Positions 17,101-33,135 of a DNA stretch of 64,000 nucleotides are shown in pieces (positions within the stretch are counted from its first letter, which is position 1; each line of letters opens with the position of its first letter). The DNA is from Candidatus Omnitrophota bacterium (GTDB lineage: Bacteria > Omnitrophota > Gorgyraeia > Duberdicusellales > 4484-171), in contig JAIPGM010000005.1 in NCBI GenBank assembly GCA_021735655.1, positions 1 through 64,000 of the forward strand, written 5' to 3'. The notes under the pieces were generated by a model. The model searched no databases and was not told where the DNA came from. It saw only the letters and a list, made by a program, of their open reading frames with translations. The position numbers and the translations under genes are program-made.

Positions 17101-18676
17101 CTTGAGCAAAAAGCTGCTTAAAATAACTATAAAGCAGTTGGGGTTTGGCCGATAAAAAAGCATGCGGAGTATCATTACCCATTGAGCTAACCGGTTCTTT
17201 CCCACTTTCAGCCATAGGCTTTATAATTAACCTAAGGTCTTCACGTGAATAGCCAAAAGCTTTTAAACTGTAGATTATTTCTTCATATTCCTCTCGGTTA
17301 CAATCACCAATAGCCAATTCATCAAAATTAACCATGCCTGCATCGTTCCATTGTTTGTAAGGAAAACGAGAAGCTACCCGTCGCTTAATTTCCGAATCAT
17401 CTACTATTGAGCCGGATTCAGTATCAATAAAAAATATCTTTCCCGGCTCGAGCCGTCCAGAAAGCTTGATTTCTGCTGGATCTATATCTAAAACACCAAC
17501 TTCCGATGCCATTACCACGAATCCATTCTTGGTTATTATGTACCGAGCTGGTCTGAGACCATTTCGATCAAGAGCGGCTGCTATGTTTTTTCCATCAGTA
17601 AAAGCTACAGCGGCCGGGCCATCCCAAGGCTCCATAAAACAAGCATGATACTTATAGAAATGTTTTAGCTCCGAGCTCATTGATTTGTCGTCTTCCCAGG
17701 CTGCTGGGATTAACATCATCATCGCATGCTCGATAGATCTTCCCGACAAAACCAAGAGCTCCAAAATGTTATCGAGCGCAGCTGAATCACTTCCACCCTT
17801 AACGATAACTGGTTTCAACTTATCAATATCGCTACCAAATGATTGACTAACCAACAACCTTTCCCTGGCGCTTACCCAATTTATATTGCCACGTAAAGTG
17901 TTTATTTCGCCATTGTGGGCTAAAAAACGGAAAGGTTGGGCTAAATCCCAAGTAGGAAAAGTATTTGTACTATAACGTGAATGGACTAAACAAAGTGAAC
18001 TTTCTAAGGAGCTATCCTTTAAATCAACAAAAAAATCACGTAGTTGCGAAGGCATTAGCAAACCTTTATAGCTTAAAGTCCGAGACGACAGGTTAGTTAT
18101 ATAAAAAAAAGATTTCTGCTTTAATCCGGCTACGCTAATTGCATTTTCGATTTGTTTACGAATAACATAAAGTTTTCGTTCAAAACCAAGCTGATCATCT
18201 AATTCCCCGCTTCTACCAATAAAAGCCTGAGATATAAATGGCATGCTACGCCTAGCACCTTTGCCAATCACTGAAACTTCAACCGGAACGTCACGCCAAC
18301 CTAAAAACTCTTGGCCTTCCTGTTTAATCTTTTTTTCGAATATACCGCGGCAAATGTCTCGTTCGTTCTTATCGGTCGGTAAAAATACTAAGCCAGTACC
18401 ATAGAAATTTGCCTTTGGCAAATTAATTCCGCTAGCTTTACATTTTTCAAACAAAAACTTATGTGGTATCTGAATAAGCATACCGGCGCCATCCCCGGTA
18501 TTAGGATCTGAACCAACAGCTCCACGATGACTTAAGCGCTCAAGAACCTCAATGCCCTTATCAATAAGAGCATAAGATTTCTTGCCGTTTATATTACAAA
18601 CAAACCCTACACCACAGCTATCATGCTCAAACTGCGAATCATATAAACCCTGGGTTTTAGGAAAATTGGAAAACAT
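14144..18676 (-). CDS. gltB: Glutamate synthase large subunit.
   Basis: 1510 aa. Ntn amidotransferase Cys (DSCGVGF), FMN/Fe-S central domain and the GXGXG C-terminal domain. Confidence 0.95.
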   Translation of the reverse strand: MFSNFPKTQGLYDSQFEHDSCGVGFVCNINGKKSYALIDKGIEVLERLSHRGAVGSDPNTGDGAGMLIQIPHKFLFEKCKASGINLPKANFYGTGLVFLPTDKNERDICRGIFEKKIKQEGQEFLGWRDVPVEVSVIGKGARRSMPFISQAFIGRSGELDDQLGFERKLYVIRKQIENAISVAGLKQKSFFYITNLSSRTLSYKGLLMPSQLRDFFVDLKDSSLESSLCLVHSRYSTNTFPTWDLAQPFRFLAHNGEINTLRGNINWVSARERLLVSQSFGSDIDKLKPVIVKGGSDSAALDNILELLVLSGRSIEHAMMMLIPAAWEDDKSMSSELKHFYKYHACFMEPWDGPAAVAFTDGKNIAAALDRNGLRPARYIITKNGFVVMASEVGVLDIDPAEIKLSGRLEPGKIFFIDTESGSIVDDSEIKRRVASRFPYKQWNDAGMVNFDELAIGDCNREEYEEIIYSLKAFGYSREDLRLIIKPMAESGKEPVSSMGNDTPHAFLSAKPQLLYSYFKQLFAQVTNPAIDSIREKLVMSLESYVGPEKNILEETPGHSHKLRVKNPILNDQEFQNLRDISINGFKAKTVYTFFDAASGQEGFVRALERICFETEYAIEQGYSFVILSDRGVNKDNIALPILLAVSAVHQHLVEKTIRSQVAIVVESAEPREVHHFALLIGYGADCINPYLAYGAIGYLIDKKEIFLDYQKALTNYRKALTDGILKILSKMGISTLRSYRGAQIFEALGLASDFIDKYFTGTASRIGGVSLLGVANETIERHKEAYPRRVIEKPYLASGGIYQWKKDGEFHLWNPKSIATLQDAATNNDYDRYCEFAQVINDQSANPTTLRSLFKFKKQKEIPIDKVELAKDIMKRFATGAMSFGSISRLAHETIAIAMNRIGGKSNTGEGGEDPSRFITLPNGDSRRSAIKQVASGRFGVTINYLVNADEIQIKIAQGAKPGEGGQLPGHKVSESIARTRFTTPGVTLISPPPHHDIYSIEDLAQLIFDLKNANPNARVSVKLVSELGVGTVAAGVAKGHADMILISGGDGGTGASPMSSIRYAGLPWELGLSETHQTLILNKLRSRVRIQTDGQIRTGRDVAIAALLGAEEYGFCTAVLIISGCVMLRHCHLNNCSVGVATQDDILQKRFRGRPEYIVNYFHFVVKELRQIMASLGIRTINEMIGRTDLLEMDRAIVPEKAKGLDLSRILYRPDCSNQNIKPYRKSKQAKDLGSVLDSKLIKMSEVAFKKNRPVNIVMDINNTNRATGAMLSGELSRRCGDGVLLEDTINCKFKGAAGQSFGAFLAKGITFELEGMANDYIGKGISGGKIIVYSDKRADFEPTENIIIGNTSFYGAISGEAYICGVAGERFCIRNSGLYAVVEGLGDHGCEYMTGGRVIVLGKTGRNFAAGMSGGIAYIYDQDKTFRNKCNLDMVELQEIKEKDKDVLYNLLDNHFKYTGSKRAKRVIDSMNEELKKFIRVIPIEYKRILEEAQIEEKLGLSETYDG

Positions 18677-18897
18677 TAACTCCTCCAGTCTTTAACACGA
18701 ATGCCCAGCCTTTTAATCTTTGAATGAAGAGTGTTTCTATTAAGGCCTAAAATCTTTGCCGCCTGAAGCTTATTGCCATCAACACGAGCTAAAACTGACT
18801 CAATCAAAGGTTTTTCAATGGCCTCGATGACCATTCGGTAAACTTCACCATCTTTAGCTTTAAAAAAAATATCATCAAATTCTACCATTTTTTTCAT
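18676..18897 (-). CDS. Small Fis/NtrC-C-terminal-type HTH DNA-binding protein.
   Basis: 73 aa. The C-terminus LQAAKILGLNRNTLHSKIKRLGI is a Fis-family HTH_8 motif. Its stop overlaps the gltB start, suggesting translational coupling. Confidence 0.65.
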   Translation of the reverse strand: MKKMVEFDDIFFKAKDGEVYRMVIEAIEKPLIESVLARVDGNKLQAAKILGLNRNTLHSKIKRLGIRVKDWRS

Positions 18898-19695: not shown

Positions 19696-21027
19696 TTACA
19701 AAATTGAAAGATACTTATCCAATTCATATTGAGGAACTTGGATTTTATAATTATCCCACTCCTTCTTCTTTAACTCCACAAACCTGGGAAAAATATGTTC
19801 ACCGAGCACCTTTTTAACCAATTCACTCTCTTCGGTTATTGAAACTGCATGTCCCAAGCTATCCGGAAGAGTCTCAATGCCTTGATCTTTTCGCTCGGAA
19901 TCGCTAAGATGATACAAATTTTTCTCCATCGGATTAGGCACCTTATAGCCTTTTTCAATGCCTTCAAGCCCGGCATGAAGCATTGCTGCAAAGGTAAGAT
20001 AAGGGTTACATGCTGGATCGGCAGCCCGAAATTCACAACGAGTAGCCTTTTCTTGACCAGGATGGTACAAAGGAACTCTAACCAAGGCGCTTCGATTCCT
20101 ACGACTCCAAGCAATATAAACCGGAGCCTCATAACCAGGAACCAACCGCTTGTAAGAATTAGTAGTTTGAGCAAATATTGAACAAATTTCCTTGGAATGC
20201 TTAAGAAGTCCGGCTATATAGCTGTGACCAACCCCAGAAAGAAAATCTTCAGCCTTAGGATCAAAAAAGGCGTTCTTTTCGCCTTTAAACAGTGATTGAT
20301 GAACATGCATACCAGAACCATTTTCGCCAAATAAGGGTTTAGGCATAAAAGTAGCGTAAACTCCGAATTTGCTAGCGATTTCTTTTACTACCACTCGATA
20401 AGTTATTACATCATCAGCCATCTTTAATGCATCTTGATAACGCATGTCTACTTCATGTTGAGACGGTGCTACTTCATGATGTGAATACTCAACATGAATT
20501 CCCATTTTCTCTAAAGCCAACACTGTTTCTCTTCGTAGATCACTAGCAACATCAAGAGTGGTTAGATCAAAATAACCCCCTTTATCCAAAGTTTCAGTAT
20601 TATTTTCGCTTTTGAAATAAAAGAACTCTAGTTCGGGACCTAGATAGAAATGGTCAAATCCCATTTTTTTAGCCCGCTCCAAGGCTCTTTTTAAAACATA
20701 GCGCGGATCGCCAACATATGGCGTACGATCAGGATTAAGCACGTCACAAATCATTCGAGCAACTGCCTTTTCCCTCGGCCGCCAAGGCAATATTGCAAAA
20801 GTTTCCGGATCAGGCATAGCAATCATATCTGATTCTTCAATGTCCTGATAACCGGTAATCGAAGAGCCATCAAAACCCATACCATTTTCTAAAGCTCCCT
20901 CTAATTCATTATCGGTTATCGAAAAACTCTTTACCTGCCCTAGAATATCAGTAAACCATAAACGAATAAACTTAACATCATTCTCCTTAACCAGTTTTAA
21001 AATATCCTGCTTTGTTTTCTTAGCCAT
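19696..21027 (-). CDS. glnA: Glutamine synthetase type I (I-alpha-like, 443 aa).
   Basis: Canonical GS-I motifs (DGSS, KPLFGENGSGMHVHQSL, NPYLTFAAML). RBS cggagg before the ATG. Confidence 0.95.
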   Translation of the reverse strand: MAKKTKQDILKLVKENDVKFIRLWFTDILGQVKSFSITDNELEGALENGMGFDGSSITGYQDIEESDMIAMPDPETFAILPWRPREKAVARMICDVLNPDRTPYVGDPRYVLKRALERAKKMGFDHFYLGPELEFFYFKSENNTETLDKGGYFDLTTLDVASDLRRETVLALEKMGIHVEYSHHEVAPSQHEVDMRYQDALKMADDVITYRVVVKEIASKFGVYATFMPKPLFGENGSGMHVHQSLFKGEKNAFFDPKAEDFLSGVGHSYIAGLLKHSKEICSIFAQTTNSYKRLVPGYEAPVYIAWSRRNRSALVRVPLYHPGQEKATRCEFRAADPACNPYLTFAAMLHAGLEGIEKGYKVPNPMEKNLYHLSDSERKDQGIETLPDSLGHAVSITEESELVKKVLGEHIFPRFVELKKKEWDNYKIQVPQYELDKYLSIL

Positions 21028-21052: not shown

Positions 21053-21098
21053 CCTAAAAATAAAAATGGTGTCTTAAGCCCTAAGGCTTTAAAACACC
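21053..21098 (-). terminator. Intrinsic-terminator-like hairpin plus U-run between glnB and glnA, ending ~25 nt before the glnA start codon.
   Basis: Minus strand: GGUGUUUUAAAGCCUUAGGGCUUAAGACACC followed by AUUUUUAUUUUU, then RBS GGAGG and ATG. Two further hairpins sit upstream (21119-21133, 21140-21155). Confidence 0.55.
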
Positions 21099-21228
21099 AT
21101 TGTTTTGAAAGCTTTTTTGCACAAACTTTGTGCTTTTTTGGCTGAAATTTCAGCCCTCAATATATATAAGTAAAAAAATGGGTCTTTTGGTAACCTTTTT
21201 TTTAAAATTTTTTCCTGGCCCATAAAAT

Positions 21229-21570
21229 TTACCCTATAGCATCACTTCCTCGCTCTCCGGTCCTTATTCTAATGCACTCCGGTAAATCTAATACAAATAT
21301 CTTGCCATCACCGATTGTACCGGTTTTAGCCCCTTTAATTATCGCTTTAACCGTAGGTTCGACAAAATCCTTATTTACGGCTATTTCAAGACGCACTTTT
21401 TTTAAAAGATTAACCTCATGGATGACGCCCCTATAGGTTTCGGTGTAGCCTTTCTGCTGACCACAACCTAAAGCATTAGAAACAGTCATCTTGTGAACAT
21501 CGGCATCAAAGAGAGCCTGTTTAACATCTGATAATTTATGCGGCTGAATCATTGCAATTACTAACTTCAT
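21229..21570 (-). CDS. glnB: PII nitrogen regulatory protein.
   Basis: 113 aa GlnB/GlnK fold ([13 protein letters not shown]..., T-loop [12 protein letters not shown]). His replaces the Tyr51 uridylylation site. 14-nt gap after amt. Confidence 0.9.
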
Positions 21571-21584
21571 GGTTTACCTCCCTG

Positions 21585-22931
21585 TTATTTAGTAGTAAAT
21601 ATTTCAAATCCAGAATAAGTCTCCATGCCATGCTGGGTGATATCTAAACCCTTTAACTCTTCTTCCCTGGATACTCTCAAGCCGATAAACCGGTCAATCA
21701 GCTTAAACACGGTAAACATCACAACTGACACAAAACTGACGACGGCTAAAACACCCAAAGCCTGAACGCCTAACTGAGCAATACCACCGCCATGAATCAA
21801 ACCATCGCGGGCTAAACCCAATGATTTATGGCCAAAAATACCAACAGCTAAAGTACCCCAAACACCATTCATCATATGTACCGGAACCGCTCCCACCGGA
21901 TCATCAACTCTAATCTTATCAAGAAAAACAGTGCCGACAACCACAATAATACCGCCGATAGCTCCAATAATCATAGCCTCTAAAGGAGTTACAAAGGCAC
22001 AAGGCGCAGTTATCGCCACCAAACCGGCTAAAGCTCCGTTCATAGTCATAGTTAAATCCGGCTTGCCAAACTTTTTCCAGTTAAAAAACATAGCCGATAA
22101 AGCTCCCGCAACTGCAGCCATATTAGTAGTAACAGCAACATGAGCTATTTGACTGCCATCGCCAACACTCAAAGTTGAACCGGGATTAAAACCAAACCAA
22201 GCAAACCATAAAATTAAGGTCCCCAACGATGCTAAAGTCATAGAATGCCCCTCAATAGCATTGGCTGATCCATCTTTATTGAACTTACCAATACGCGGCC
22301 TCAATACAATTGTCCCCATAAGGGCTGCTGTGCCGCCTACAGCGTGAACTACGCTCGATCCGGCAAAATCGGCAAAATTTAAATTACTGAGCCAACCGCC
22401 GCCCCAAATCCAATGGCCAATTATCGGATAAACTGTGGCTGAAATTAAAAATGAATATATAAGATACGCTTTAAACTTCATTCTTTCGGCTACACCACCA
22501 GCAACTATAGTTGCTGCGGCTCCGCAGAATACAGCGTGAAAAAACCAAGCCGCATAGAGAGGCAAATGTCCATCATGAGCGGCATTAACCATAAACCAAC
22601 CCTTAAAGCCCATAAAACCATTTCCGGCGCCAAACATTATGGCATAACCAAATATGAAAAATCCCACAGAAGCCATACAAAAATCTAAAAAGTTATTCAT
22701 CAACACATTACAAGTATTTTTAGCCCTAATTAACCCCGCTTCCAACATACCAAATCCAGCCTGCATGATAAAAACCATGAAGGCTGCAATCATAACCCAA
22801 AGAGTATCAATTCCAGCTACCGTAGCGTAAGCCGTATTCTCATCGGCAAAAACCGACCCTAAAGCCACGGAACTAATTACTCCTAAAAATAATACCGCCG
22901 AAACTAACTTTTTAATTTTTTTTATCTTCAT
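21585..22931 (-). CDS. amt: Ammonium transporter (Amt family), copy 1.
   Basis: 448 aa with signal peptide and 11 TM helices. Amt signatures; 60-70 % similar to copy 2. Confidence 0.92.
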   Translation of the reverse strand: MKIKKIKKLVSAVLFLGVISSVALGSVFADENTAYATVAGIDTLWVMIAAFMVFIMQAGFGMLEAGLIRAKNTCNVLMNNFLDFCMASVGFFIFGYAIMFGAGNGFMGFKGWFMVNAAHDGHLPLYAAWFFHAVFCGAAATIVAGGVAERMKFKAYLIYSFLISATVYPIIGHWIWGGGWLSNLNFADFAGSSVVHAVGGTAALMGTIVLRPRIGKFNKDGSANAIEGHSMTLASLGTLILWFAWFGFNPGSTLSVGDGSQIAHVAVTTNMAAVAGALSAMFFNWKKFGKPDLTMTMNGALAGLVAITAPCAFVTPLEAMIIGAIGGIIVVVGTVFLDKIRVDDPVGAVPVHMMNGVWGTLAVGIFGHKSLGLARDGLIHGGGIAQLGVQALGVLAVVSFVSVVMFTVFKLIDRFIGLRVSREEELKGLDITQHGMETYSGFEIFTTK

Positions 22932-22982: not shown

Positions 22983-24329
22983 TTATTGAGTAGTAAAAAT
23001 TTGAAACCCTGAGTATGCTTCCATACCATGCTCATCGATATCTAAACCTTTTAACTCTTCTTCTTTGGATACTCTTAAGCCTATAGTAGCTTTAACTATT
23101 TTAAAAAGGATCAAAGCTGTACCAAACACCCAAGCAAACACCGACACAACACCAATTAGCTGAGTAATAAATTGGCCTATACCCCCACCAAAAAATAAAC
23201 CATCAACTCCACCATAAGATTTTTGGGCAAATAATCCTGCAGACAGTGTCCCCCAAGCGCCACACACACCATGAACCGATACGGCGCCGACCGGATCATC
23301 GATATGAAGCACCTTGTCTATAAATTCAACACTCAACACAACAAGAATGCCGCCGATAGCGCCAATTATGATTGCGCTTAAGGGTGAAACGTTAGCACAA
23401 GGAGCAGTTATCGCTACCAATCCAGCAAGTGCACCATTTAAAGCCATGCTAGTATCCGGCTTACCAAATCTTATCCAAGCCGTAAACATAGCTGCAGTAG
23501 CTCCGGCTGCAGCTGCTAAATTTGTAGTTACCGCAATTACAGCAATACTTAAATCTGTCCCCGCAGTTGTGCTTCCGGCATTAAATCCAAACCATCCAAA
23601 CCAAAGAATAAACACACCCAAAGCTGCCAAAGGGATACTATGACCAGGAATAGCATTTGATGAACCATCTTTATTATATTTGCCAAGTCTAGGGCCAAGC
23701 ATCATTGCTCCGGCTAAAGCTGCCCAACCGCCGACCGAATGAACCACAGTTGAACCAGCAAAGTCAATCATTCCCTTAGCTGATAACCAGCCACCACCCC
23801 AAATCCAATGTCCGGCAACCGGATAAATTATGGCCGTAATAAAAACACTGTACCAAAGATAACCGCTGAACTTTGTTCTTTCAGCCATAGCTCCGGAAAC
23901 TATTGTGGCCGCGGTAGCGGCAAACACTACTTGAAACATCCAAAAAGCAAATTGCCACAAACCATCAGCAGTAGCCGGATTAGCTGCACTCAAAAAAAAT
24001 CCGTCTTTGCCAAAAAGGCCAAAAGTACTGGTTCCAAACATTATGCCAAAGCCAACAGCCCAATAGGTAATTGAACCAACTGAAAAATCCATAAGGTTCT
24101 TCATCATAATGTTACAAGCATTTTTGGCCCGGGTAAAACCGGTCTCAACCATGGCAAAGCCGGCTTGCATAAAAAATACCAAGAATGCTGCGACCAAAAC
24201 CCATACTGTATCAATAGAAACAGCGTTGCTGGCTGAAGTTGCCTCCTCAGCAAAAGCCGAGAAGCTCAACCCCAATAGCACAATACCGATACTAAACATT
24301 AATGATAATTTTTTTAGTTTTATTAACAT
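22983..24329 (-). CDS. amt: Ammonium transporter (Amt family), copy 2.
   Basis: 448 aa with signal peptide, an Amt-family paralog, in tandem with copy 1. Confidence 0.92.
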   Translation of the reverse strand: MLIKLKKLSLMFSIGIVLLGLSFSAFAEEATSASNAVSIDTVWVLVAAFLVFFMQAGFAMVETGFTRAKNACNIMMKNLMDFSVGSITYWAVGFGIMFGTSTFGLFGKDGFFLSAANPATADGLWQFAFWMFQVVFAATAATIVSGAMAERTKFSGYLWYSVFITAIIYPVAGHWIWGGGWLSAKGMIDFAGSTVVHSVGGWAALAGAMMLGPRLGKYNKDGSSNAIPGHSIPLAALGVFILWFGWFGFNAGSTTAGTDLSIAVIAVTTNLAAAAGATAAMFTAWIRFGKPDTSMALNGALAGLVAITAPCANVSPLSAIIIGAIGGILVVLSVEFIDKVLHIDDPVGAVSVHGVCGAWGTLSAGLFAQKSYGGVDGLFFGGGIGQFITQLIGVVSVFAWVFGTALILFKIVKATIGLRVSKEEELKGLDIDEHGMEAYSGFQIFTTQ

Positions 24330-24344
24330 AAGGATACCTCTCTC

Positions 24345-25136
24345 TTAGAATCCGTAGCTAACTTCAAAACCACCCCATAATTCTTCATCACCATTATTAA
24401 TCTCTTCTTCATGATTAATCGTATAGTGCAAACTAGGAGTTAGACTGAAACCACCCAAAGCATAAGAAGTTGATAATGAAAGTTCAGTCGCATAAAGCGA
24501 GCTAGGTTCAAGATCGGCAACTCCGTCATTGCCCCAGTTAACTACTCCTAAGGCAAGAGTTTGTCCTTCTTGAATTAAAGAATGCTTCAGAAGCGGGAGT
24601 TCAGCATCAAAACCCCAAGAATAATACCAACCCTCATCAGGACCACCGGATTTGGCTTGAAAATCATAGCCGGCAAAAAAGCTTGCTGAAACGTCAATTG
24701 GAAGAAAAGGTATTTTATTCAAGGTTCCGGAAAGCCAAGACTCAGAAACATCAGCCGTGCTGGCTGTATTAGGAAAGTCAAAGTAAGTATATCCGGTTGA
24801 AAAATTAAATTGATCATCGAATAGATCTCGAGAAAAAGTTACAGTATAATCAAGCTCTTCGCCGTCTTCATGCCCACTATTCATCGGAAATGATCCCCAG
24901 ACATTGAATGAAAGGTCAACCCCATCGATAAGCCCAGGAAATCCAATATCAATACTCGGCTGGTGTGCTCCATCATTATCGCTATAGAGATCTTGCCCAC
25001 GCCAGATATATCTAGAAACATAAGTATCAGTTACGGTAACCTCAACCGGCTGGCCAGCAAACTCAAAAGCATAAATATCCCCTAAAAAAATAACACTAAA
25101 TATTATATTCATTAACCAAACTGATATTTTTTTCAT
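24345..25136 (-). CDS. Putative outer-membrane beta-barrel protein (porin-like), first gene of the amt operon.
   Basis: Signal peptide, alternating amphipathic beta-strand pattern, aromatic-rich, C-terminal ...SYGF. 15-nt gap to amt. Confidence 0.6.
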   Translation of the reverse strand: MKKISVWLMNIIFSVIFLGDIYAFEFAGQPVEVTVTDTYVSRYIWRGQDLYSDNDGAHQPSIDIGFPGLIDGVDLSFNVWGSFPMNSGHEDGEELDYTVTFSRDLFDDQFNFSTGYTYFDFPNTASTADVSESWLSGTLNKIPFLPIDVSASFFAGYDFQAKSGGPDEGWYYSWGFDAELPLLKHSLIQEGQTLALGVVNWGNDGVADLEPSSLYATELSLSTSYALGGFSLTPSLHYTINHEEEINNGDEELWGGFEVSYGF

Positions 25137-25149
25137 AATTTTCTCCCTT

Positions 25150-25200
25150 AAAAATAAAAAAGCGCATTATTCCAAATATCCACCTTTGGAATAACACGCC
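25150..25200 (-). terminator. Intrinsic-terminator-like hairpin plus U-run in the 5' leader immediately upstream of the OMP-amt operon RBS.
   Basis: On the minus strand: GCGUGUUAUUCCAAA-(loop)-UUUGGAAUAAUGCGC (~14 bp stem) followed by UUUUUUAUUUUU, then the RBS AAGGGAG and ATG. There is no room for a promoter between the terminator and the start. Confidence 0.6.
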
Positions 25201-25245
25201 TTTGTGTTTTTACTTAACCTCTACAATCAATTAAGTAAAAAAACT

Positions 25246-25758
25246 CTATCTTTGGTAACCTTTATTTTTCCATTTTTGAACTATTTTCTTTTTATGCTTA
25301 ATAATCATAACATGAGAACAATCAAGCTCTTTGGCTATTTCACGAACAGTATATCCTTTCAACAAATAAGACAAAACCGATTTATCCTTATCAGTTAAAC
25401 CTAAACTATTAATTTCATCAATCGTAAGATTATGATCTATATTTGGTATAAAGTCGGCTTTTTCATCCTTAAGAATATCGCCCAAGGTTTGTCCATTAGG
25501 AGAAATTAACTTATCCAAGCTTGAAATATTCGCCTTAGGCCTACCTTTTCTTAAGAAATTCTGTAGATGAAACTCACAGCCCTTAATTACATAGGCTTGA
25601 TTAATGCCGATCGGCAACCCATTAGAATAATTTTCCCAAAGATAAAGACACATCTCTTGGTATAGATCTTCCTCACTATAAAAACCACGCAGCAAATGCT
25701 TGCGTGCAACAAATCTTAAGCTGGGAGTTATTTTTTCTAATAATATCCTAAAGTCCAT
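25246..25758 (-). CDS. Small sigma-70-family (ECF-like) sigma factor or sigma-like regulator.
   Basis: 170 aa. Region-2-like DLYQEMCLYLWENY. Region-4 HTH LLKGYTVREIAKELDCSHVMIIKHKKKI. Confidence 0.6.
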   Translation of the reverse strand: MDFRILLEKITPSLRFVARKHLLRGFYSEEDLYQEMCLYLWENYSNGLPIGINQAYVIKGCEFHLQNFLRKGRPKANISSLDKLISPNGQTLGDILKDEKADFIPNIDHNLTIDEINSLGLTDKDKSVLSYLLKGYTVREIAKELDCSHVMIIKHKKKIVQKWKNKGYQR

Positions 25759-25777
25759 AAACTTTACCCCTGAAAGT

Positions 25778-25818
25778 CAAAAAGCCCCCATTAGACTTCT
25801 TATTGTCTAGTGAGGGCT
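25778..25818 (-). terminator. Terminator/attenuator-like hairpin in the leader of the sigma-like gene.
   Basis: On the minus strand: AGCCCUCACUAGAC-(loop)-GUCUAAUGGGGGCU (13/14 pairs) followed by UUUUUG. It lies 20 nt upstream of the RBS and downstream of a candidate extended -10. Confidence 0.55.
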
Positions 25819-25848
25819 TCTTTGCCAAAATTAACTTCTTTGTTATTA

Positions 25849-25884
25849 ATTTATACCATGTAAAGTAAAAATCTATTTGTCAAG
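25849..25884 (-). promoter_or_regulatory. Candidate promoter: TTGACA-like -35 and extended -10 TGgTATAAAT on the minus strand, upstream of the leader hairpin.
   Basis: cttgacaa ... catggtataaat read on the minus strand. The 22-nt spacer is non-canonical, so the call rests on the extended -10. Confidence 0.3.
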
Positions 25885-27228
<1,344 letters not shown>

Positions 27229-27323: not shown

Positions 27324-28721
27324 CTACCATTTACCTGTTTCTAAATACTGATCAATTGCCAAAGCAGCGGCTTTTCCAGCCCCCATAGCTAAGATTACCG
27401 TAGCTGCACCAGTAGCAATATCTCCTCCGGCAAAAACCCCTTTTTTGCTGGTTTTGCCGGTGTCAGTATCGACTACGATATTTCCCTTTCTTCCTATTTC
27501 AAGACCACTAGTTGTAGAAGGAATCAAGGGATTCGGGCTATTGCCAATAGCTACAACCACTAAATCTACCGGAAGCTTAAAATTTGAGCCCTCGATCGGA
27601 ACTGGACGCCGGCGACCTGAAGTATCCGGTTCACCCAAATCCATTCGCAAACATTCCATATCTTTTACCCAACCTTTTTCATCAGCATGATAGGCAATCG
27701 GCAGGGTTAGAAACTCAAAGATTACTCCTTCTTCTTCGGCATGATGGATCTCTTCTTCTCTAGCCGGCATCTCCTTACGTGAGCGCCGATAGATAATCCT
27801 AGCTTCTTCTGCACCTAAGCGAAGGGCGGTTCTTACTGAATCCATAGCTACATTACCACCACCAATCACAGCAACGTGTTTTCCTTTTATGATTGGAGTA
27901 TCATATTCAGGAAACTTATAGGCCTTCATTAAATTTACTCGAGTTAAATACTCATTGGCCGAATATATACCGTTAGAGTTTTCACCGGGTAAGTCCATAA
28001 ACCAAGGTAAACCAGCCCCGCTACCGATAAATACCGCATCAAATTCATTTAATAGCTCATCTACAGTTTCAAGTTTTCCAACCACAAAGGAAGTTACTAC
28101 TTCCACCCCTAAAGACTTTATATATTCAACCTCTCGTTCAACTACCTTTTTCGGTAAACGAAACTCAGGAATCCCATATATTAACACCCCGCCCATCTTA
28201 TGCAGGGCTTCAAATATTTTTACCTTATGCCCTAATTTAGCTAACTCGCCAGCCACAGTAAGCCCGGCTGGGCCGCCGCCAACTACAGCTACCTTTTTAC
28301 CGGAAGAAGCAACTTTTCTAGGAGCTTCTCGGTTGGTTTGCTCTGCCTCCCAATCAGCGATAAACCGCTCTAGGCGGCCGATACCTACTGGTTCGCCCAT
28401 TTTAGATAATATACAAACCTTCTGGCACTGCTCCTCCTGAGGACAAACTCTACCGCAGATTGCTGGAAGACTATTAGTTTCCTTCATCTTCTTTATTGAG
28501 CCCTTTAAATCTCCCTTAGCAATTAAATCGATAAAGCCGGGGATATCGATACCCACCGGACAACCATCTATACATAAGGGTTTTTTACATTGTAAACAAC
28601 GCTTAGCTTCGCAAATAGCTTCATCAAGCGAATAACCATAAGGCACTTCTTTAAAGTTATTTCTTCGCTCGGACGGATCCTGTTCGCGCATTGGTACCAT
28701 TTTAGGGTCAGGTTTATTCAT
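27324..28721 (-). CDS. GltD-like NAD(P)H oxidoreductase subunit: NfnB / SudA-type (GOGAT small-subunit homolog).
   Basis: 465 aa with Cys clusters CLQCKKPLCIDGCP and CGRVCP, and VAVVGGGPAGL. Paired with a PyrK-like subunit. A genuine gltBD is present elsewhere in the window, so NfnAB is more likely than GOGAT. Confidence 0.75.
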   Translation of the reverse strand: MNKPDPKMVPMREQDPSERRNNFKEVPYGYSLDEAICEAKRCLQCKKPLCIDGCPVGIDIPGFIDLIAKGDLKGSIKKMKETNSLPAICGRVCPQEEQCQKVCILSKMGEPVGIGRLERFIADWEAEQTNREAPRKVASSGKKVAVVGGGPAGLTVAGELAKLGHKVKIFEALHKMGGVLIYGIPEFRLPKKVVEREVEYIKSLGVEVVTSFVVGKLETVDELLNEFDAVFIGSGAGLPWFMDLPGENSNGIYSANEYLTRVNLMKAYKFPEYDTPIIKGKHVAVIGGGNVAMDSVRTALRLGAEEARIIYRRSRKEMPAREEEIHHAEEEGVIFEFLTLPIAYHADEKGWVKDMECLRMDLGEPDTSGRRRPVPIEGSNFKLPVDLVVVAIGNSPNPLIPSTTSGLEIGRKGNIVVDTDTGKTSKKGVFAGGDIATGAATVILAMGAGKAAALAIDQYLETGKW

Positions 28722-29547
28722 TGTTAATTTGCTTATTTAATTTGCACATTGACTTATCCTCATGCTGCAAAAATCTCTTCTGCCTGGTCATCAACTCATT
28801 AAAATCTACCTTGTGTCCGTCAAAGTCCGGGCCATCAACACAGGTAAACTTAGTTTTATTATTAACCGTAACTCGACAGCCACCGCACATACCAGTTCCG
28901 TCAATCATAATTGCATTAAGACAAACTATAGTTTCTATCTTGTATCCTCTAGTTAAATCAGAAACCGCCTTCATCATTACAACTGGCCCAACACAAAATA
29001 CCAAACCCCAGTCTGAACTTTCACTAAGCAAGCGCTTTAAAGGATCGATTACCAGGCCTTTTTCACCAAGTGAGCCATCATCAGTAGTAATATAAAGCTG
29101 GTCTGAAAACTCCTTAACCTGATCGCGCAAGATCACTAACTTTTCAGTGCGGCCGCCTAAAATTGAGCTTATCTCACACCCAGCTTTTTTAAAAGCCTTA
29201 ACTACCGGCAAAAGCTCAGCAATACCTACACCGCCACCGACAACAATAACCTTTCCATAATTCTTAATCTCTGTGGGTTTGCCTAAGGGTCCGACTAAAG
29301 AATAAAGTGAATCTCCAACTGCTAGTTTACCAAGCAACTTAGTAGTGTAGCCTACCTCTTGAAAAATAATTGTAATCAACCCTTTTTCTTTATCGACATC
29401 AACAATAGTCAAAGGAATACGTTCACCAGCCTCATTAACCATCAACACAACAAACTGACCGGGTAATGCCTTTTTGGCAATAAGCGGTGATTGGATAACA
29501 AACTTGGTTAAATCTTTAGCAATCGACTCTTTAACGATAATTTTCAC
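28714..29547 (-). CDS. PyrK/ferredoxin-NADP reductase-like FAD/[2Fe-2S] subunit (NfnA / SudB-type).
   Basis: 277 aa. FAD/NAD-binding fold and C-terminal CGGC...C cluster. Eight-nucleotide overlap with the GltD-like gene. Confidence 0.75.
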   Translation of the reverse strand: MKIIVKESIAKDLTKFVIQSPLIAKKALPGQFVVLMVNEAGERIPLTIVDVDKEKGLITIIFQEVGYTTKLLGKLAVGDSLYSLVGPLGKPTEIKNYGKVIVVGGGVGIAELLPVVKAFKKAGCEISSILGGRTEKLVILRDQVKEFSDQLYITTDDGSLGEKGLVIDPLKRLLSESSDWGLVFCVGPVVMMKAVSDLTRGYKIETIVCLNAIMIDGTGMCGGCRVTVNNKTKFTCVDGPDFDGHKVDFNELMTRQKRFLQHEDKSMCKLNKQINNE

Positions 29548-29639
29548 TCTTGTCTCCCCTTACCCTTACATTCTGTCAATTTTTCAAAAATAGCACAGAA
29601 AATAAAAAAACGCCTTTTCTTTGCGCTGCTGTGCAAAAA

Positions 29640-29672
29640 AAAGACGTCCTTGTCTCCTGTATAAATATACCA
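29640..29672 (-). promoter_or_regulatory. Candidate sigma70-like promoter (TTGACA-16-TATATT) upstream of the nfnA-nfnB-gdhA unit.
   Basis: Minus strand: cacTTGACAattcgatttagattggTATATTtatac, about 100 nt upstream of the nfnA start, followed by a structured leader. Confidence 0.4.
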
Positions 29673-29698
29673 ATCTAAATCGAATTGTCAAGTGATTT

Positions 29699-30400
29699 TC
29701 AGTCTTTTTTTATTTCTTGAGCTAAGATAACTGCCTCAGCAATTTCCTTCATCGAAACCCGCTTGTCCATACTTATCTTTCTTATTAAAGCATAGGCTTT
29801 ATCTTCGGTTAATTTTTGCTGATTCATCAAAATGCCTTTGGCCCGCTCGATCTTTTTACGGGCCTGAAGCTCTTCCTGAACTATCTGAGTCTTAACCATT
29901 AACTCCGTATTCTCAATAGCAACTGCGGCCTGATTAGCCACAGTACTGAGAAGCTTAATGTCGCCTTTGGTGAACTTATACTCTGTAGTCGTATAGCAGT
30001 TAATAACTCCGACTGCTCTTCGCTTAACCATCATCGGCACACTAAGCATTGAAACCAACCCTAGCAATTTAGCCAGCTTTTTTTCTTTATAGCTCTTATC
30101 TTTGGAAACATCTAAAATAGTTATCGGTTTTTTGTCATGAGCAACCAGACCGACTATACCTTCGCCTATCTTTAAACTCCGCTCCTTTAAATATTCGCTA
30201 TTTAAAGCCTGGGTAGCTCTTATTTTTAACTCTTTTTTCTTATCATCTAAAAGCCATAAAGCACAAATCTTGGCCTTCATTACATTAGCAGTTAAAGTTA
30301 CTATCAACTTCAATACGTCTTCCAAATATAAATCAGAAGTAATAGCAATGCTAATTTTACTTAAAGTATCGATGTAAGCTTTGTAAGAAGTTTTTGGCAT
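29699..30400 (-). CDS. GAF-ANTAR RNA-binding antitermination regulator.
   Basis: 233 aa. N-terminal GAF-like domain. The C-terminus (ELQARKKIERAKGILMNQQKLTEDKAYALIRKISMDKRVSMKEIAEAVI) is a typical ANTAR coiled-coil/helical domain. Confidence 0.8.
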   Translation of the reverse strand: MPKTSYKAYIDTLSKISIAITSDLYLEDVLKLIVTLTANVMKAKICALWLLDDKKKELKIRATQALNSEYLKERSLKIGEGIVGLVAHDKKPITILDVSKDKSYKEKKLAKLLGLVSMLSVPMMVKRRAVGVINCYTTTEYKFTKGDIKLLSTVANQAAVAIENTELMVKTQIVQEELQARKKIERAKGILMNQQKLTEDKAYALIRKISMDKRVSMKEIAEAVILAQEIKKD

Positions 30401-30907: not shown

Positions 30908-31492
30908 CTACGATAAAAGATAAATCTTGAAATCCAAACTAACTTTCAATTTTCTATCCTTAGCCGATGAGTCTTTGATAATCTCTATTCTCTCAACGGT
31001 CACCAAGGCTAAGAGCTCGCTCCTAAGCCTCTCGATGTATTGCACTAACTCTGTATATGTGCAGTTAATCTCAATAGCAACCAAAATACTTTGGCAAATT
31101 CTTTGACCTATTGCTAGAGCCTCCTTTTTGCCTTGGAGAACTGCTTGCTTAGCTCCCGGCTTAAAAGAAATAATACTAATATTCGACTGACGAGCTAAAT
31201 CAGAAATCTTACTTAAAGCCTCCTCTTCCTTGACTGGAAACTTACCCTCTAGGGCTGAGAATCTTTCTTTAAGCAGAGTTATCCCTTTTTCTAAAGAGCC
31301 TGCTTCCAGGGCTATTTTTTCAATGTCTGAAACCTCTTTCTCGATATTTGCAAGTTCTAACTTTAAGGCTGCTACTTTCTTACGGCTAGGGCTATAAATT
31401 AATGACCAAAAAATTATAAAAGCTAACAAAACAATAACAGTGATGATTATTATCTTTTTTTGACTCTGAGTTATTTGATTTAAACTTATCAT
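30908..31492 (-). CDS. Type IV pilus assembly protein PilO-like.
   Basis: 194 aa. N-terminal TM plus coiled coil plus C-terminal domain. Synteny after PilMN. Confidence 0.55.
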   Translation of the reverse strand: MISLNQITQSQKKIIIITVIVLLAFIIFWSLIYSPSRKKVAALKLELANIEKEVSDIEKIALEAGSLEKGITLLKERFSALEGKFPVKEEEALSKISDLARQSNISIISFKPGAKQAVLQGKKEALAIGQRICQSILVAIEINCTYTELVQYIERLRSELLALVTVERIEIIKDSSAKDRKLKVSLDFKIYLLS

Positions 31493-31506
31493 GAACTTAA
31501 TTATTA

Positions 31507-33135
31507 CTAATCTGCCAACTCACAAGCTAGTTCAAATTTTTGGATCGAACCTTCTTTTTTTGAAGAAGTTAAACCAGCTTCAATAAAAAAGGCTGAACTC
31601 TCCAACCGCTGCATAAATTTAGATAAAACTGTTTCGGACAATTCACCGCTTGCTAAAACATGACCCCGGAGAGTCAAGTTACTTCTCTCCTGATTAAAAC
31701 TTACCTGATCTAAAATTACCTCATCAGGAACTAAAACACTTAATAACTTAAGTAAACCATCGGCCGGAACCTTTCCGATCTGCAATTGATTAACCAAGGC
31801 TTCTCTGGCTAGAATACCCTGCCTAAGAGTCCTCACTTCGCTAATAGTTTCAAGGTGGGCTTTAGCATTAAAAATTCTAACCTTATAACTAGCCTCTTGA
31901 GACTTAAGAATCAATACCGCAAAAAAGAATAAAGCCGCTATGGTTATCGCTGAAACTCGCAACGATACTGTCTGGATTAATTCTGACTTTTGAGCTTTTA
32001 TCTCTTTAGGGAGCAGGTTAATTGCTGTCGCAGAAAAAAGAACCGCCCCAAGATTATTTAGCAGCTGAAGACGAGAATTATCTAACTTATCCTGGCCGAT
32101 CTCGCCAAAATCAAAGTTTTCAAGAAAAGGCAAGCTTAAAACTTCCAAAGATAACTCTTTGGCCAGGTAACTATCTAAATTTTTTAAATTAGCGCCACCG
32201 CCAACCAAGTACAGCTTGGAAGAAATCTCTTGATCAAGCTCAGAAACAAAATAATCAAAACTACGTTTTAATTCTTTAGCTAGAATCTCTAAATGTGGCC
32301 GCATCAAAGAAATAACTTGAATCGCCTCAATATTGCCCTTGATAGCCTGGTTTTGACTTTTCGGAAAACCAAAGGTCTGCTTTATCTCCTCGGCCTCGGC
32401 ATAACTAAGTTGAACTTTTCCTTTATCGGAAATAAGCGTTCCGGTTAAGTCTTGGGTAAGCTTTTCTGAAGAAAAAGGTATTTTTCGAGAAAATTTCAAA
32501 GTATTATTAAGATAAATATAGAGACTACTCTGGTTGTAGCCAATATCAAGGATACTTTCAACTTTAAAACTTTCCGGCTGAGACTTTAAAATATTGCTAT
32601 AATTAAAAGGCGCTAAGGAAACCTTTGATGGGGTAATATTGCATTCTTTTAATACCGATATATATTCATTAACCGCTTCTGCGTTAGCGACAGCAAAAAC
32701 TATCTCGTTTTTCTTTACTTGCTCTTGATCGGTAAATTCTCTAATAACCTGCCACTCAATAGTCGCATCTTTTAAATCGAAGTTAAGCTCATCTTTCAGC
32801 TGCCACTTAGCTGCTCCGATAATTTCAGCCTTAGGTAAAACCGGCAACTCAAGATTTTTTATTACTATTGAATCCGGGTCGGAAATAGTTAAACAAACTT
32901 GGGCTTCCAAGATAGAATTTCTTTCTAAGAAAGATTTAATCAGCGCTATTAAGTCATCTTTTGTCTGATTAGTTAAAGATATTTTCTCAATTAATAAATC
33001 TTTGAGCTTAAACCTATTCCTGTATGGTTCTAAAAAAGAAATCTTTAAAAAAGCCTGGCCAAACTCAATAGATACCACTACCTTCGGCTTTTTTTGAAAA
33101 ATACTAGTTAAATTTGCAATAAGCCCATTAACCAT
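31507..33135 (-). CDS. PilM-PilN fusion protein (actin-like ATPase fold plus TM/PilN-like C-terminal part).
   Basis: 542 aa. A TM segment around residue 390 separates a ~380-aa PilM-like region from a ~150-aa PilN-like tail. Confidence 0.6.
   Translation of the reverse strand: MVNGLIANLTSIFQKKPKVVVSIEFGQAFLKISFLEPYRNRFKLKDLLIEKISLTNQTKDDLIALIKSFLERNSILEAQVCLTISDPDSIVIKNLELPVLPKAEIIGAAKWQLKDELNFDLKDATIEWQVIREFTDQEQVKKNEIVFAVANAEAVNEYISVLKECNITPSKVSLAPFNYSNILKSQPESFKVESILDIGYNQSSLYIYLNNTLKFSRKIPFSSEKLTQDLTGTLISDKGKVQLSYAEAEEIKQTFGFPKSQNQAIKGNIEAIQVISLMRPHLEILAKELKRSFDYFVSELDQEISSKLYLVGGGANLKNLDSYLAKELSLEVLSLPFLENFDFGEIGQDKLDNSRLQLLNNLGAVLFSATAINLLPKEIKAQKSELIQTVSLRVSAITIAALFFFAVLILKSQEASYKVRIFNAKAHLETISEVRTLRQGILAREALVNQLQIGKVPADGLLKLLSVLVPDEVILDQVSFNQERSNLTLRGHVLASGELSETVLSKFMQRLESSAFFIEAGLTSSKKEGSIQKFELACELAD

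Follow-up and report, generated by a model that had tools for sequence, protein, structure and literature searches.

A candidate ANTAR-type attenuator upstream of an ECF-like sigma factor gene in an Omnitrophota nitrogen cluster

What controls access to a small sigma-like gene that lies between gdhA and a pair of ammonium transporter genes? The question is raised by positions 25778-25884 of a 64,000-nucleotide (nt) stretch, here called the window, from a metagenome-assembled genome (MAG) of an uncultured member of the Omnitrophota. All relevant genes lie on its minus strand, and the interval is part of the 126-nt gap between gdhA and an open reading frame (ORF) of 170 amino acids (aa). The closest database protein to this ORF is from a Candidatus Omnitrophota MAG. 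Our analysis indicates that the interval is probably an ANTAR-type, protein-dependent attenuator that gates a sigma factor for a nitrogen regulon.

Hexaloop hairpins and the terminator in the sigma leader

An initial annotation had described the leader as an extended -10 element, a hairpin with a U-run and a ribosome-binding site (RBS), and had taken it for an attenuator. All of these elements are present on the minus strand. The attenuator interpretation is strengthened by two mini-hairpins, P1 and P2, whose hexaloops carry A at position 1 and G at position 4 (A1/G4) and compete with the terminator, and by the recurrence of the layout in relatives described below. The features of the leader, from 5' to 3', are as follows.

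25885-27213, minus strand: gdhA, glutamate dehydrogenase (Pfam ELFV_dehydrog, 7.5e-95), with its stop codon TAG at 25887-25885
25878-25883, minus strand: TTGACA, a -35-like box read from the sequence, mis-spaced
25849-25858, minus strand: extended -10 element TGgTATAAAT, with the -10 hexamer TATAAA at 25855-25850
25832-25845, minus strand: P1 mini-hairpin UAAC-AAAGAA-GUUA with an A1/G4 hexaloop, from a rule-based scan
25815-25826, minus strand: P2 mini-hairpin GGC-AAAGAA-GCC with an A1/G4 hexaloop, from the same scan; its 3' arm GCC (25817-25815) forms the first three G-C pairs of the terminator
25779-25819, minus strand: intrinsic terminator, with a hairpin at 25819-25782 (-20.3 kcal/mol) and the U-run UUUUU at 25783-25779
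25756-25771, minus strand: RBS AGGGG (25771-25767) and ATG (25758-25756) of the sigma gene, read from the sequence
25246-25758, minus strand: gene for the predicted 170-aa sigma-70-family protein (ECF-like, for extracytoplasmic function; sigma2 plus sigma4)

The terminator hairpin consists of the 5' arm AAGCCCUCACUAGAC (25819-25805), the loop AAUAAGAA and the 3' arm GUCUAAUGGGGGCUU (25796-25782). Its core, GCCCUCACUAGAC/GUCUAAUGGGGGC, spans 13 positions that include one G-U pair and one C-A mismatch. As is characteristic of intrinsic terminators, the stretch 25819-25779 is a G+C-rich hairpin directly followed by a U-run, and the folding z-score of the leader is -4.76 relative to 200 shuffles. 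The terminator scan of a consensus tool missed this hairpin because of the internal mismatch; an energy-based scan, which we used in its place, detected it. The ATG follows the U-run by only about 20 nt, and the sigma ORF can therefore be transcribed only by read-through of the terminator. The hairpin, which lies 66 nt past the gdhA stop codon, is thus not a mere gene-end signal. The initial annotation had offered a role as the gdhA terminator as an alternative. That proposal survives in part: gdhA transcripts, too, can end here while the antiterminator is inactive, and the two roles are compatible, but the hairpin is not a simple gene-end terminator.

Hallmarks of ANTAR targets are two A1/G4 hexaloops, a short linker, and a P2 hairpin that competes with a terminator (PMC3369931, PMC8934654). 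In eut leaders the linker measures 5-12 nt, and linkers of 3 nt or 14 nt lost induction (PMC3369931). The sigma leader has two adjacent hexaloop mini-hairpins with A1/G4 in both, a linker within this range (AUUUU, 5 nt), and a P2 that cannot form together with the terminator directly following it. The same organism also encodes an ANTAR protein (PF03861, 1.3e-19), whose gene lies at the head of the cluster, 3.8 kb upstream of the sigma leader.

29699-30400, minus strand: gene for a GAF-ANTAR regulator of 233 aa (Pfam GAF_2 1.1e-19, ANTAR 1.3e-19)

When P1 and P2 are enforced in folding, the three G-C pairs beside the U-run remain open. P1 plus P2 alone are worth about -3 kcal/mol, compared with -18.4 kcal/mol for the terminator fold. 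Because the terminator fold far outweighs the two small hairpins, the default state should be 'stop', with a protein required for 'go'.

The rule-based scan accepted pairs of hairpins with stems of at least 3 base pairs (bp), hexaloops with A1 and G4, and a linker of 0-15 nt, and required that P2 overlap the 5' half of a hairpin with a T-run after it. Applied to both strands of the window, it returned exactly three sites, all in the nitrogen cluster. These precede nfnA, the 170-aa ORF, and the unit formed by an outer-membrane-protein-like (OMP-like) gene and amt, and their terminators range from -19 to -20 kcal/mol. Windows shuffled 600 times with dinucleotides preserved averaged 0.012 sites each at dG <= -18, and none of them had as many as two even at dG <= -15. 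A fourth, looser version precedes glnA. Thus, beyond what had been annotated initially, the locus holds an identifiable candidate antiterminator (29699-30400) and four copies of the device, one of them looser. The other three copies are listed here.

29600-29658, minus strand: attenuator 1, before nfnA, with AGGAGAC-AAGGAC-GUCUUUU and UGC-ACAGCA-GCG in the 5' half of the terminator 29648-29609, followed by a U-run
25152-25208, minus strand: attenuator 3, before OMP-amt, with AACAC-AAAGGC-GUGUU and UCC-AAAGGU-GGA overlapping the terminator 25199-25162, followed by a U-run
21056-21134, minus strand: attenuator 4, before glnA, the looser copy, with GCAC-AAAGUUU-GUGC and AAAAC-AAUGGU-GUUUU overlapping the terminator 21101-21065, followed by a U-run

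The glnA leader departs from the strict pattern in its 7-nt P1 loop and 12-nt linker. It also has an extra hairpin, GGGCUG-AAAUUU-CAGCC (21140-21155, minus strand), in which the fourth loop position is U instead of G; the corresponding loops of relatives are AUUGUA or AGUGUA.

To follow the leader across relatives we used 64 loci that encode homologues of the ORF at 38-76% identity, from a scan with one genome per species; labels such as L001 and L065 denote these related loci or metagenome contigs. Leader statistics are based on the 57 loci with enough upstream sequence. In 53 of the 57, the 260 nt 5' of the sigma gene contain one or more strong terminators, and in 28 they contain at least two; the promoter-terminator-sigma layout is seen again in relatives without gdhA upstream. 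A hairpin with an A1/G4 hexaloop is found at the terminator foot in 41 of the 57. Terminators with the dual motif occur 42 times on the gene strand across the loci and once on the opposite strand. Among hexaloop hairpins of any sequence, the A1+G4 share is 30% at terminator feet (136/452) versus 7.5% at offset controls (112/1487); the commonest hexaloops at terminator feet are AAAGAC, AAAGGC, AAGGGC, AAGGGT and AAAGAA. Our first dual-hairpin scan often mistook the 3' half of an upstream terminator for P1 in related loci, and we therefore rely on the statistic for P2 at the terminator foot and on orthologous alignments.

Clear orthologues of the window's leader are present in L065/L066, L067/L068, L034, L011, L040 and L016. 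The conserved islands of these leaders are P1 (U[A/G]AC-A..G..-GUU) and P2, and the terminator stems differ. P2 is invariant as GGC-AA[A/U]GAA-GCC. The orthologous P1 hairpins include UUAAC-AAAGUG-GUUAA, UGAC-AAUGAA-GUU and UUGAC-GAAGUA-GUUAA, with G4 invariant in the loop and A1 in 6/7. Relatives of 86% identity carry two ANTAR-type attenuators in tandem (L065, 5800-5960; L067, 5800-5930), the second of which has the P2 hairpin GGGU-AAUGAU-GCCC or GGC-AUUGAU-GCC. The window's terminator resembles the second terminator of these relatives, and the window's leader looks like the product of a deletion between two GCCC repeats by which the first terminator was lost and P2 was fused to the second terminator.

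Several observations weigh against ANTAR control of the sigma leader. The stems are minimal: P1 comprises four A/U-rich pairs worth 0 kcal/mol alone, and P2 comprises three pairs. Only 17 of the 64 loci have an ANTAR homologue at a distance of up to 9 kb from the sigma gene, and in 7 it is directly upstream. Rfam searches (gathering score for the whole window; E <= 10 for 19-31 kb) returned nothing relevant and no matching family. In addition, a covariance model whose sole input was amt leaders, taken from 25 other loci, gave the sigma leader just 8.7 bits (E 3.3, rank 7), in the proposed register and with canonical pairs. The same model found the window's amt leader at 25.3 bits (E 5e-4) and its glnA leader at 17.3 bits (E 0.034); it is dominated by amt-leader sequence and is too sequence-specific to judge the sigma leader. 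Covariation in its seed is limited, and three of the four P1 pairs never vary. Because of this weak score, we base the assignment of the sigma leader on the rule-based scan, on the shuffles and on the alignment of orthologous leaders. A known riboswitch or other catalogued RNA family was also considered for the leader and was rejected for want of an Rfam match.

Routes of transcription into the leader

Read-through from gdhA is certainly one route into the leader. The promoter of the nfnA-gltD-gdhA unit is the best match in a promoter scan of 15 kb.

29664-29691, minus strand: sigma-70 promoter TTGACA-16-TATATT with TG, matching 11 of 12 consensus positions plus TG

A second entry point, initiation at 25858-25849, is plausible. 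TGn stands directly 5' of a TATAAT-like hexamer (TGgTATAAA, 25858-25850), and the box ATGnTATAnT recurs at an equal distance from P1 in L065/L066, L034, L011, L040 and L016. In the window's leader class it lies 4-5 nt before P1, which would place the start of P1 at or near +1. However, the extended -10 element might be nonfunctional, such that the leader is reached only from gdhA and acts as an internal operon attenuator. We treat this alternative as a serious one and rate it a little short of an even call. The -35-like TTGACA is 22 nt from the -10 hexamer rather than 16-18 nt, whereas the orthologous leaders have 16-17 nt, and because of this spacer the promoter is absent from the list of the 15-kb consensus scan. 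With such mis-spacing only the extended -10 element could operate. The box is missing in L067/L068, which are 85% identical; in these loci, as in L013, there is no box and the leader directly follows gdhA. Transcription of the leader in L067/L068 can, judging by this arrangement, come only from gdhA. Moreover, a start at the extended -10 element would truncate P1 to 3 bp. All of these points speak against a promoter in the leader. On the other side, the same box recurs at the same P1 distance with a well-spaced TTGAC -35 box in L034, L011, L040, L016 and L065, and textbook extended -10 elements can function without a -35 box.

Within the 22-nt spacer (25856-25877, minus strand), the extra bases resemble a tandem TTTAC-TTTAC duplication, a 5-6 nt insertion relative to the orthologous leaders. 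The sequence TGGTATA alone is mildly enriched (14 observed versus 7.4 expected). Most relatives have the sigma-like gene under its own near-consensus housekeeping promoter, cTTGACA-N16/17-TGTGGTATAMT, and in 41 of the 57 a TTGACn-N13-16-TGnTAnnnT promoter is located farther upstream.

The 170-aa protein and the GGTTACC-N16-TACTT motif

The initial annotation had proposed that a small sigma factor adds a cascade to nitrogen control, and had asked whether the ORF has sigma-70 homology. The homology is there, though the Pfam region 2 and region 4 matches fall below the cut-off, and the cascade idea is independently supported by a conserved bipartite, promoter-like motif before the amt and glnA units. 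The absence of sigma-54 elements was likewise borne out: a pattern scan for -24/-12 sites showed no enrichment and no site in the leaders.

The alignment with TIGR02937 (sigma70-ECF) is full-length (residues 3-165, E 2.5e-9), and this model also matches 30 of 30 relatives at E <= 1e-3, with a best value of 1.3e-14. Many relatives are named 'sigma-70 family' by NCBI. An AlphaFold model, with a confidence (pLDDT) of 72, consists of three helices (3-71), a four-helix C-terminal domain and, between them, a disordered linker (74-109), and the top 20 full-length Foldseek matches are all sigma factors. A profile search of PDB sequences matched region 4 of sigma-F, sigma-B and sigma-H and gave only region-4/LuxR helix-turn-helix matches, so that the assignment of region 2 needed structure comparison, which identified a sigma region-2 fold in the N-terminal domain. 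Throughout the family, a DLYQE motif resembling region 2.1/2.2 and most of helix 3 do not vary. Features of both region 2 and region 4 were therefore found, and by sequence and modelled fold the protein is a two-domain, ECF-like member of the sigma-70 family. Its relatives form a small clade isolated in sequence: a search of 1.84 billion cluster representatives gave 329 matches at E <= 1e-3 and 8 at E <= 1e-30. The ORF has no anti-sigma gene beside it.

The scores that argue against this assignment are those of the curated models. Pfam reports only GerE above threshold (1.9e-8), with Sigma70_r4 (0.022), Sigma70_r4_2 (0.057) and Sigma70_r2 (0.07) below it, the TIGR02937 score of 37.0 bits is short of the curated cut-off of 42.9 bits, and the Foldseek E-values are weak, at 8e-3 and above.

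The motif was recognised in relatives, in the DNA immediately 3' of the sigma gene, and it occurs twice in the window.

25233-25260, minus strand: GGTTACC-N16-TACTT, copy 1, before OMP-amt-amt-glnB (position weight matrix, PWM, 37.9 bits)
21168-21195, minus strand: GGTTACC-N16-TACTT, copy 2, before glnA (PWM 48.5 bits)

Two exact sites compare with 0.05 expected in the window, and they are also its only PWM hits, the next-best position in 128 kb scoring 0.8 bits. The exact motif is present in 58 of the 64 loci, with 101 instances including those of the window. Its spacer is 16 nt in 99 of the 101, and the opposite strand has none. In the logo, an A-rich stretch is followed by GGTTACCAAAA, N7 and tTTTTTACTTAT. 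Each locus usually has a pair of sites, one at the 3' end of the sigma gene (5' of the OMP/amt operon) and one after glnB (5' of glnA). In the window, the GGTTACC box of copy 1 (25254-25260, minus strand) forms the last codons, G-Y-Q, of the sigma gene. It encodes a C-terminal G-Y-Q in many of the proteins, and where the protein ends earlier it is non-coding and lies 3' of the stop codon. The box is thus kept both as coding and as non-coding sequence, and its conservation is at the DNA level. The loci concerned are L004, L005, L009, L017, L026 and L028. A consensus scan called no sigma-70-type (housekeeping) promoter in the amt or glnA intergenic regions.

A metagenome scan with the pattern gave mostly chance matches, and only the subset with high PWM scores is meaningful: among its 19 top sites, 17 border genes of nitrogen clusters (the sigma gene, amt, glnB-glnA, OMP-like, HTH_8-gltB, glutamine synthetase type III and one GAF(-ANTAR) gene). 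Each of the six metagenome sites that we inspected (L175, L173, L157, L136, L170 and L098) is followed by hexaloop hairpins and a terminator-like hairpin. These contexts suggest that the regulon is wider than the window and that the antiterminator gene can lie downstream of the motif. The combination of motif, dual hairpin and terminator recurs in L175 (minus strand, motif at 975), L173, L136, L170 and L157, where the genes after the motif are a small ORF and then a GAF(-ANTAR) gene, HTH_8-gltB, glutamine synthetase type III or an OMP-like gene.

We consider it likely that GGTTACC-N16-TACTT is the cognate promoter of the 170-aa sigma factor, with fold, synteny and motif distribution as support. 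Against this, the link between protein and motif is one of association, and the sigma gene is not preceded by a GGTTACC-N16-TACTT motif of its own. The protein might instead be an activator of the LuxR/GerE type that binds GGTTACC and aids the housekeeping holoenzyme at a weak -10 box. GerE is its sole above-threshold Pfam family, some databases call relatives 'LuxR C-terminal-related transcriptional regulator', and GGT-T-ACC is a palindrome with an odd centre. Nevertheless, we judge an activator unlikely. The N-terminal domain has the sigma region-2 fold rather than that of a receiver or ligand-binding domain, the full-length TIGR02937 alignment extends to all 30 relatives, and the downstream box TTTTTACTT is invariant, unlike the TATAAT-type -10 boxes in the consensus promoters of the same loci. 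Direct recognition by the sigma factor is favoured over an activator site because the spacer is fixed (16 nt at 99 of the 101 sites), because this -10-like box is invariant and not of the TATAAT type, and because the motif is confined to nitrogen genes and is physically fused to the sigma gene.

The sequence TTTTTACTTWA, which is common to three leaders, was also considered as an independent motif and was rejected as unenriched (19 versus 16.8 expected); it is the -10 half of the bipartite motif. Its copy in the sigma leader was rejected as a motif site, since it lacks GGTTACC at the right distance and scores -5.5 bits. At the amt promoter, an inverted repeat, TTTTTTTACTTAATT ... GGTTAAGTAAAAA (about 25203-25239, minus strand), brackets the -10-like box and the expected amt start, and it is also found in L006, L012 and L016. 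It is only in read-through RNA from the sigma gene that the repeat would fold into a 13-bp hairpin.

A candidate circuit and its relation to known systems

Read 5' to 3' on the minus strand, the locus begins with pilM/N/O and continues with the GAF-ANTAR gene, nfnA-like and gltD-like genes, gdhA and the 126-nt gap. These are followed by the 170-aa ORF, OMP-like, amt, amt, glnB and glnA, and then by a GATase gene, a 73-aa HTH_8 ORF, gltB and gltD. Among the loci with sufficient sequence, 49 of 53 have amt within 2.5 kb downstream of the sigma gene. Features not yet given are listed here.

30908-33135, minus strand: pilM/N/O-like genes, upstream of the GAF-ANTAR gene
27324-29547, minus strand: nfnA-like and gltD-like genes
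24345-25136, minus strand: OMP-like gene, 263 aa, without a family match
22983-24329 and 21585-22931, minus strand: two amt genes (Pfam Ammonium_transp)
21229-21570, minus strand: glnB (Pfam P-II)
19696-21027, minus strand: glnA, glutamine synthetase, from the ORF translation; homologues in relatives carry Gln-synt_N and Gln-synt_C
18676-18897, minus strand: Fis-type HTH_8 ORF, 73 aa, between the GATase gene and gltB

The OMP-like protein has a signal-peptide-like N-terminus and a beta-barrel-like C-terminus ending in ...SYGF, and it matches no Pfam or NCBIfam model. Many relatives keep its gene in the place between sigma gene and amt; the product may be an ammonium-related porin. The small HTH_8 gene also precedes gltB in L065, L067 and L173. 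Some MAGs that carry the conserved cluster (L001, L008, L009, L045, L051 and L053) are labelled Planctomycetia, Elusimicrobia, WOR-3, Clostridia or archaeon, which is probably due to mis-binning or mis-labelling rather than to real spread of the system.

The ANTAR part of the candidate antiterminator matches the solved structures of a response regulator (6wsh), Rv1626 (1s8n) and NasR (4akk). Its GAF part matches the GAF domain of PtsP (enzyme I-Ntr; 3ci6, 3trc) and models of NifA/PtsP. GAF domains of PtsP and NifA bind glutamine and/or 2-oxoglutarate. Because of this resemblance, we propose nitrogen status as the candidate signal of the GAF-ANTAR protein. L065 and L067 keep the gene order of the window, with the ANTAR gene next to the cluster. 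L065 also has, at 1-588, a gene for a GAF-HisKA-HATPase histidine kinase directly upstream of the GAF-ANTAR gene, where the window has the pilM/N/O-like genes.

The observations can be assembled into the following scheme, in which we infer the pairing of each protein with its element, the transcription starts and the signal sensed. Polymerase would enter the leader from gdhA (promoter 29691-29664) and possibly also from the extended -10 element at 25858-25849. By default, the nascent RNA would form the -20 kcal/mol terminator and transcription would end in the U-run, 20 nt short of the sigma gene. When active, the GAF-ANTAR protein would bind the AAAGAA hexaloops of both P1 and P2; the closed P2 would withhold GCC, leaving the terminator incomplete, and polymerase would read into the 170-aa gene. 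The sigma factor would in turn direct polymerase to GGTTACC-N16-TACTT at OMP-amt-amt-glnB and at glnA. The amt and glnA transcripts would then meet ANTAR-type attenuators of their own, such that sigma factor and antiterminator together would form a feed-forward AND gate for ammonium assimilation.

Support for gating of the terminator by an ANTAR protein comes from motif anatomy, statistics and conservation, and two other explanations of the hairpin fare poorly. It might be a plain gdhA terminator, with coincidental hexaloops and a sigma-like gene expressed by unregulated leak-through. This is very unlikely: the hairpin is a textbook terminator 66 nt after the gdhA stop codon, and L067/L068 and L013 have no promoter between gdhA and the leader, but the 20 nt from U-run to ATG make the downstream gene dependent on read-through, relatives without gdhA upstream have a dedicated consensus promoter and then one to four terminators before the sigma gene, and dual A1/G4 hairpins occur at three leaders of the window versus 0.012 expected and are kept in orthologues. 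A non-ANTAR agent (a riboswitch ligand, another RNA-binding protein or a leader peptide) could be invoked where the ANTAR gene is not beside the sigma gene, but is highly improbable given that Rfam has no riboswitch match even at E <= 10, that the roughly 60 nt before the terminator hold no leader ORF beyond ATG-GTA-TAA, and that conservation falls precisely on those loop positions which ANTAR proteins recognise.

Taken in full, the proposed circuit would have the antiterminator gate the sigma gene and then amt, glnA, glnN, gltB and, in some lineages, the ANTAR gene, with the AND gate in the place of sigma-54/NtrC. Our confidence is evenly divided on whether ammonium assimilation in Omnitrophota is indeed controlled by an ECF-like sigma factor with its own promoter code and a GAF-ANTAR protein, joined both in series and in parallel in a coherent feed-forward AND gate. 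The RNA element by itself has every sequence-level feature of an ANTAR target, and ANTAR attenuators at nitrogen genes have been predicted before. What is new is a phylum-wide, nearly invariant promoter-like motif that is tied to a sigma factor and confined to nitrogen-assimilation genes. Literature searches found no sigma factor gene as an ANTAR target, no GGTTACC-N16-TACTT motif, no double gating of each operon and no account of nitrogen regulation in Omnitrophota. If correct, the circuit would give an uncultured phylum a concrete regulatory system and a new sigma-promoter pair, and would provide a clean natural case in which initiation and antitermination act jointly on the same operons. 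It would also suggest a first candidate physiological role, tied to nitrogen status, for a protein of the GAF-ANTAR type, a domain combination without any characterised example as of 2012 (PMC3369931). With two sites in 64 kb and a next-best score near zero, the motif is sharp enough for direct annotation of the regulon in metagenomes.

The leaders most closely resemble those controlled by EutV/EutW in the eut cluster of Enterococcus faecalis (PMC3369931, PMC8934654), which also have two A1/G4 hexaloops, a short linker (5 nt here), a P2 drawn from the 5' foot of the terminator, several leaders per cluster and an ANTAR protein encoded in the cluster. In contrast, the sensor here is a GAF domain and not a phospho-receiver, and the targets are genes for ammonium assimilation and a sigma factor. 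Unlike in eut, both hairpins are inside the 5' half of the terminator in two leaders of the window, and the glnA leader has its 7-nt P1 loop and 12-nt linker. ANTAR nitrogen regulons have been predicted in Desulfotomaculum acetoxidans and Pelobacter carbinolicus (PMC3369931); for nitrogen genes of Firmicutes and Deltaproteobacteria, such regulons were predicted by Ramesh et al. As in these regulons and in Klebsiella NasR-nasF, ANTAR leaders precede genes for P-II, ammonium transporter, glutamine synthetase and glutamate synthase, with many attenuators per regulon. However, none of these regulons was reported with an ANTAR-controlled dedicated sigma factor or with a second, promoter-level layer; the phylum here is Omnitrophota, and the sensor of NasR is a NIT domain.

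The 170-aa protein resembles group 4 ECF sigma factors such as E. coli sigma-E, M. tuberculosis SigH/SigK and S. coelicolor SigR in its size of about 170 aa, its make-up of sigma2 and sigma4 domains only, joined by a flexible linker, its sigma2 of three helices with a DLxQE motif, and its candidate promoter of two short boxes with a fixed 16-nt spacer. ECF promoter boxes are usually of the GGAAC/CGT type, from which GGTTACC and TACTT differ. Unlike these sigma factors, it lacks a neighbouring anti-sigma factor and, with a promoter of the housekeeping type, gives no sign of being autoregulated; its activity is apparently set by transcription attenuation, and its scores fall short of the curated family cut-offs. 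Finally, the proposed arrangement is reminiscent of sigma-54/NtrC, which usually provides sigma-level control over nitrogen assimilation in Proteobacteria, in that an alternative sigma factor would be dedicated to genes of the amt/glnA type, but it involves another protein family and another promoter geometry, with no -24/-12 elements and no enhancer-binding protein evident in the cluster.

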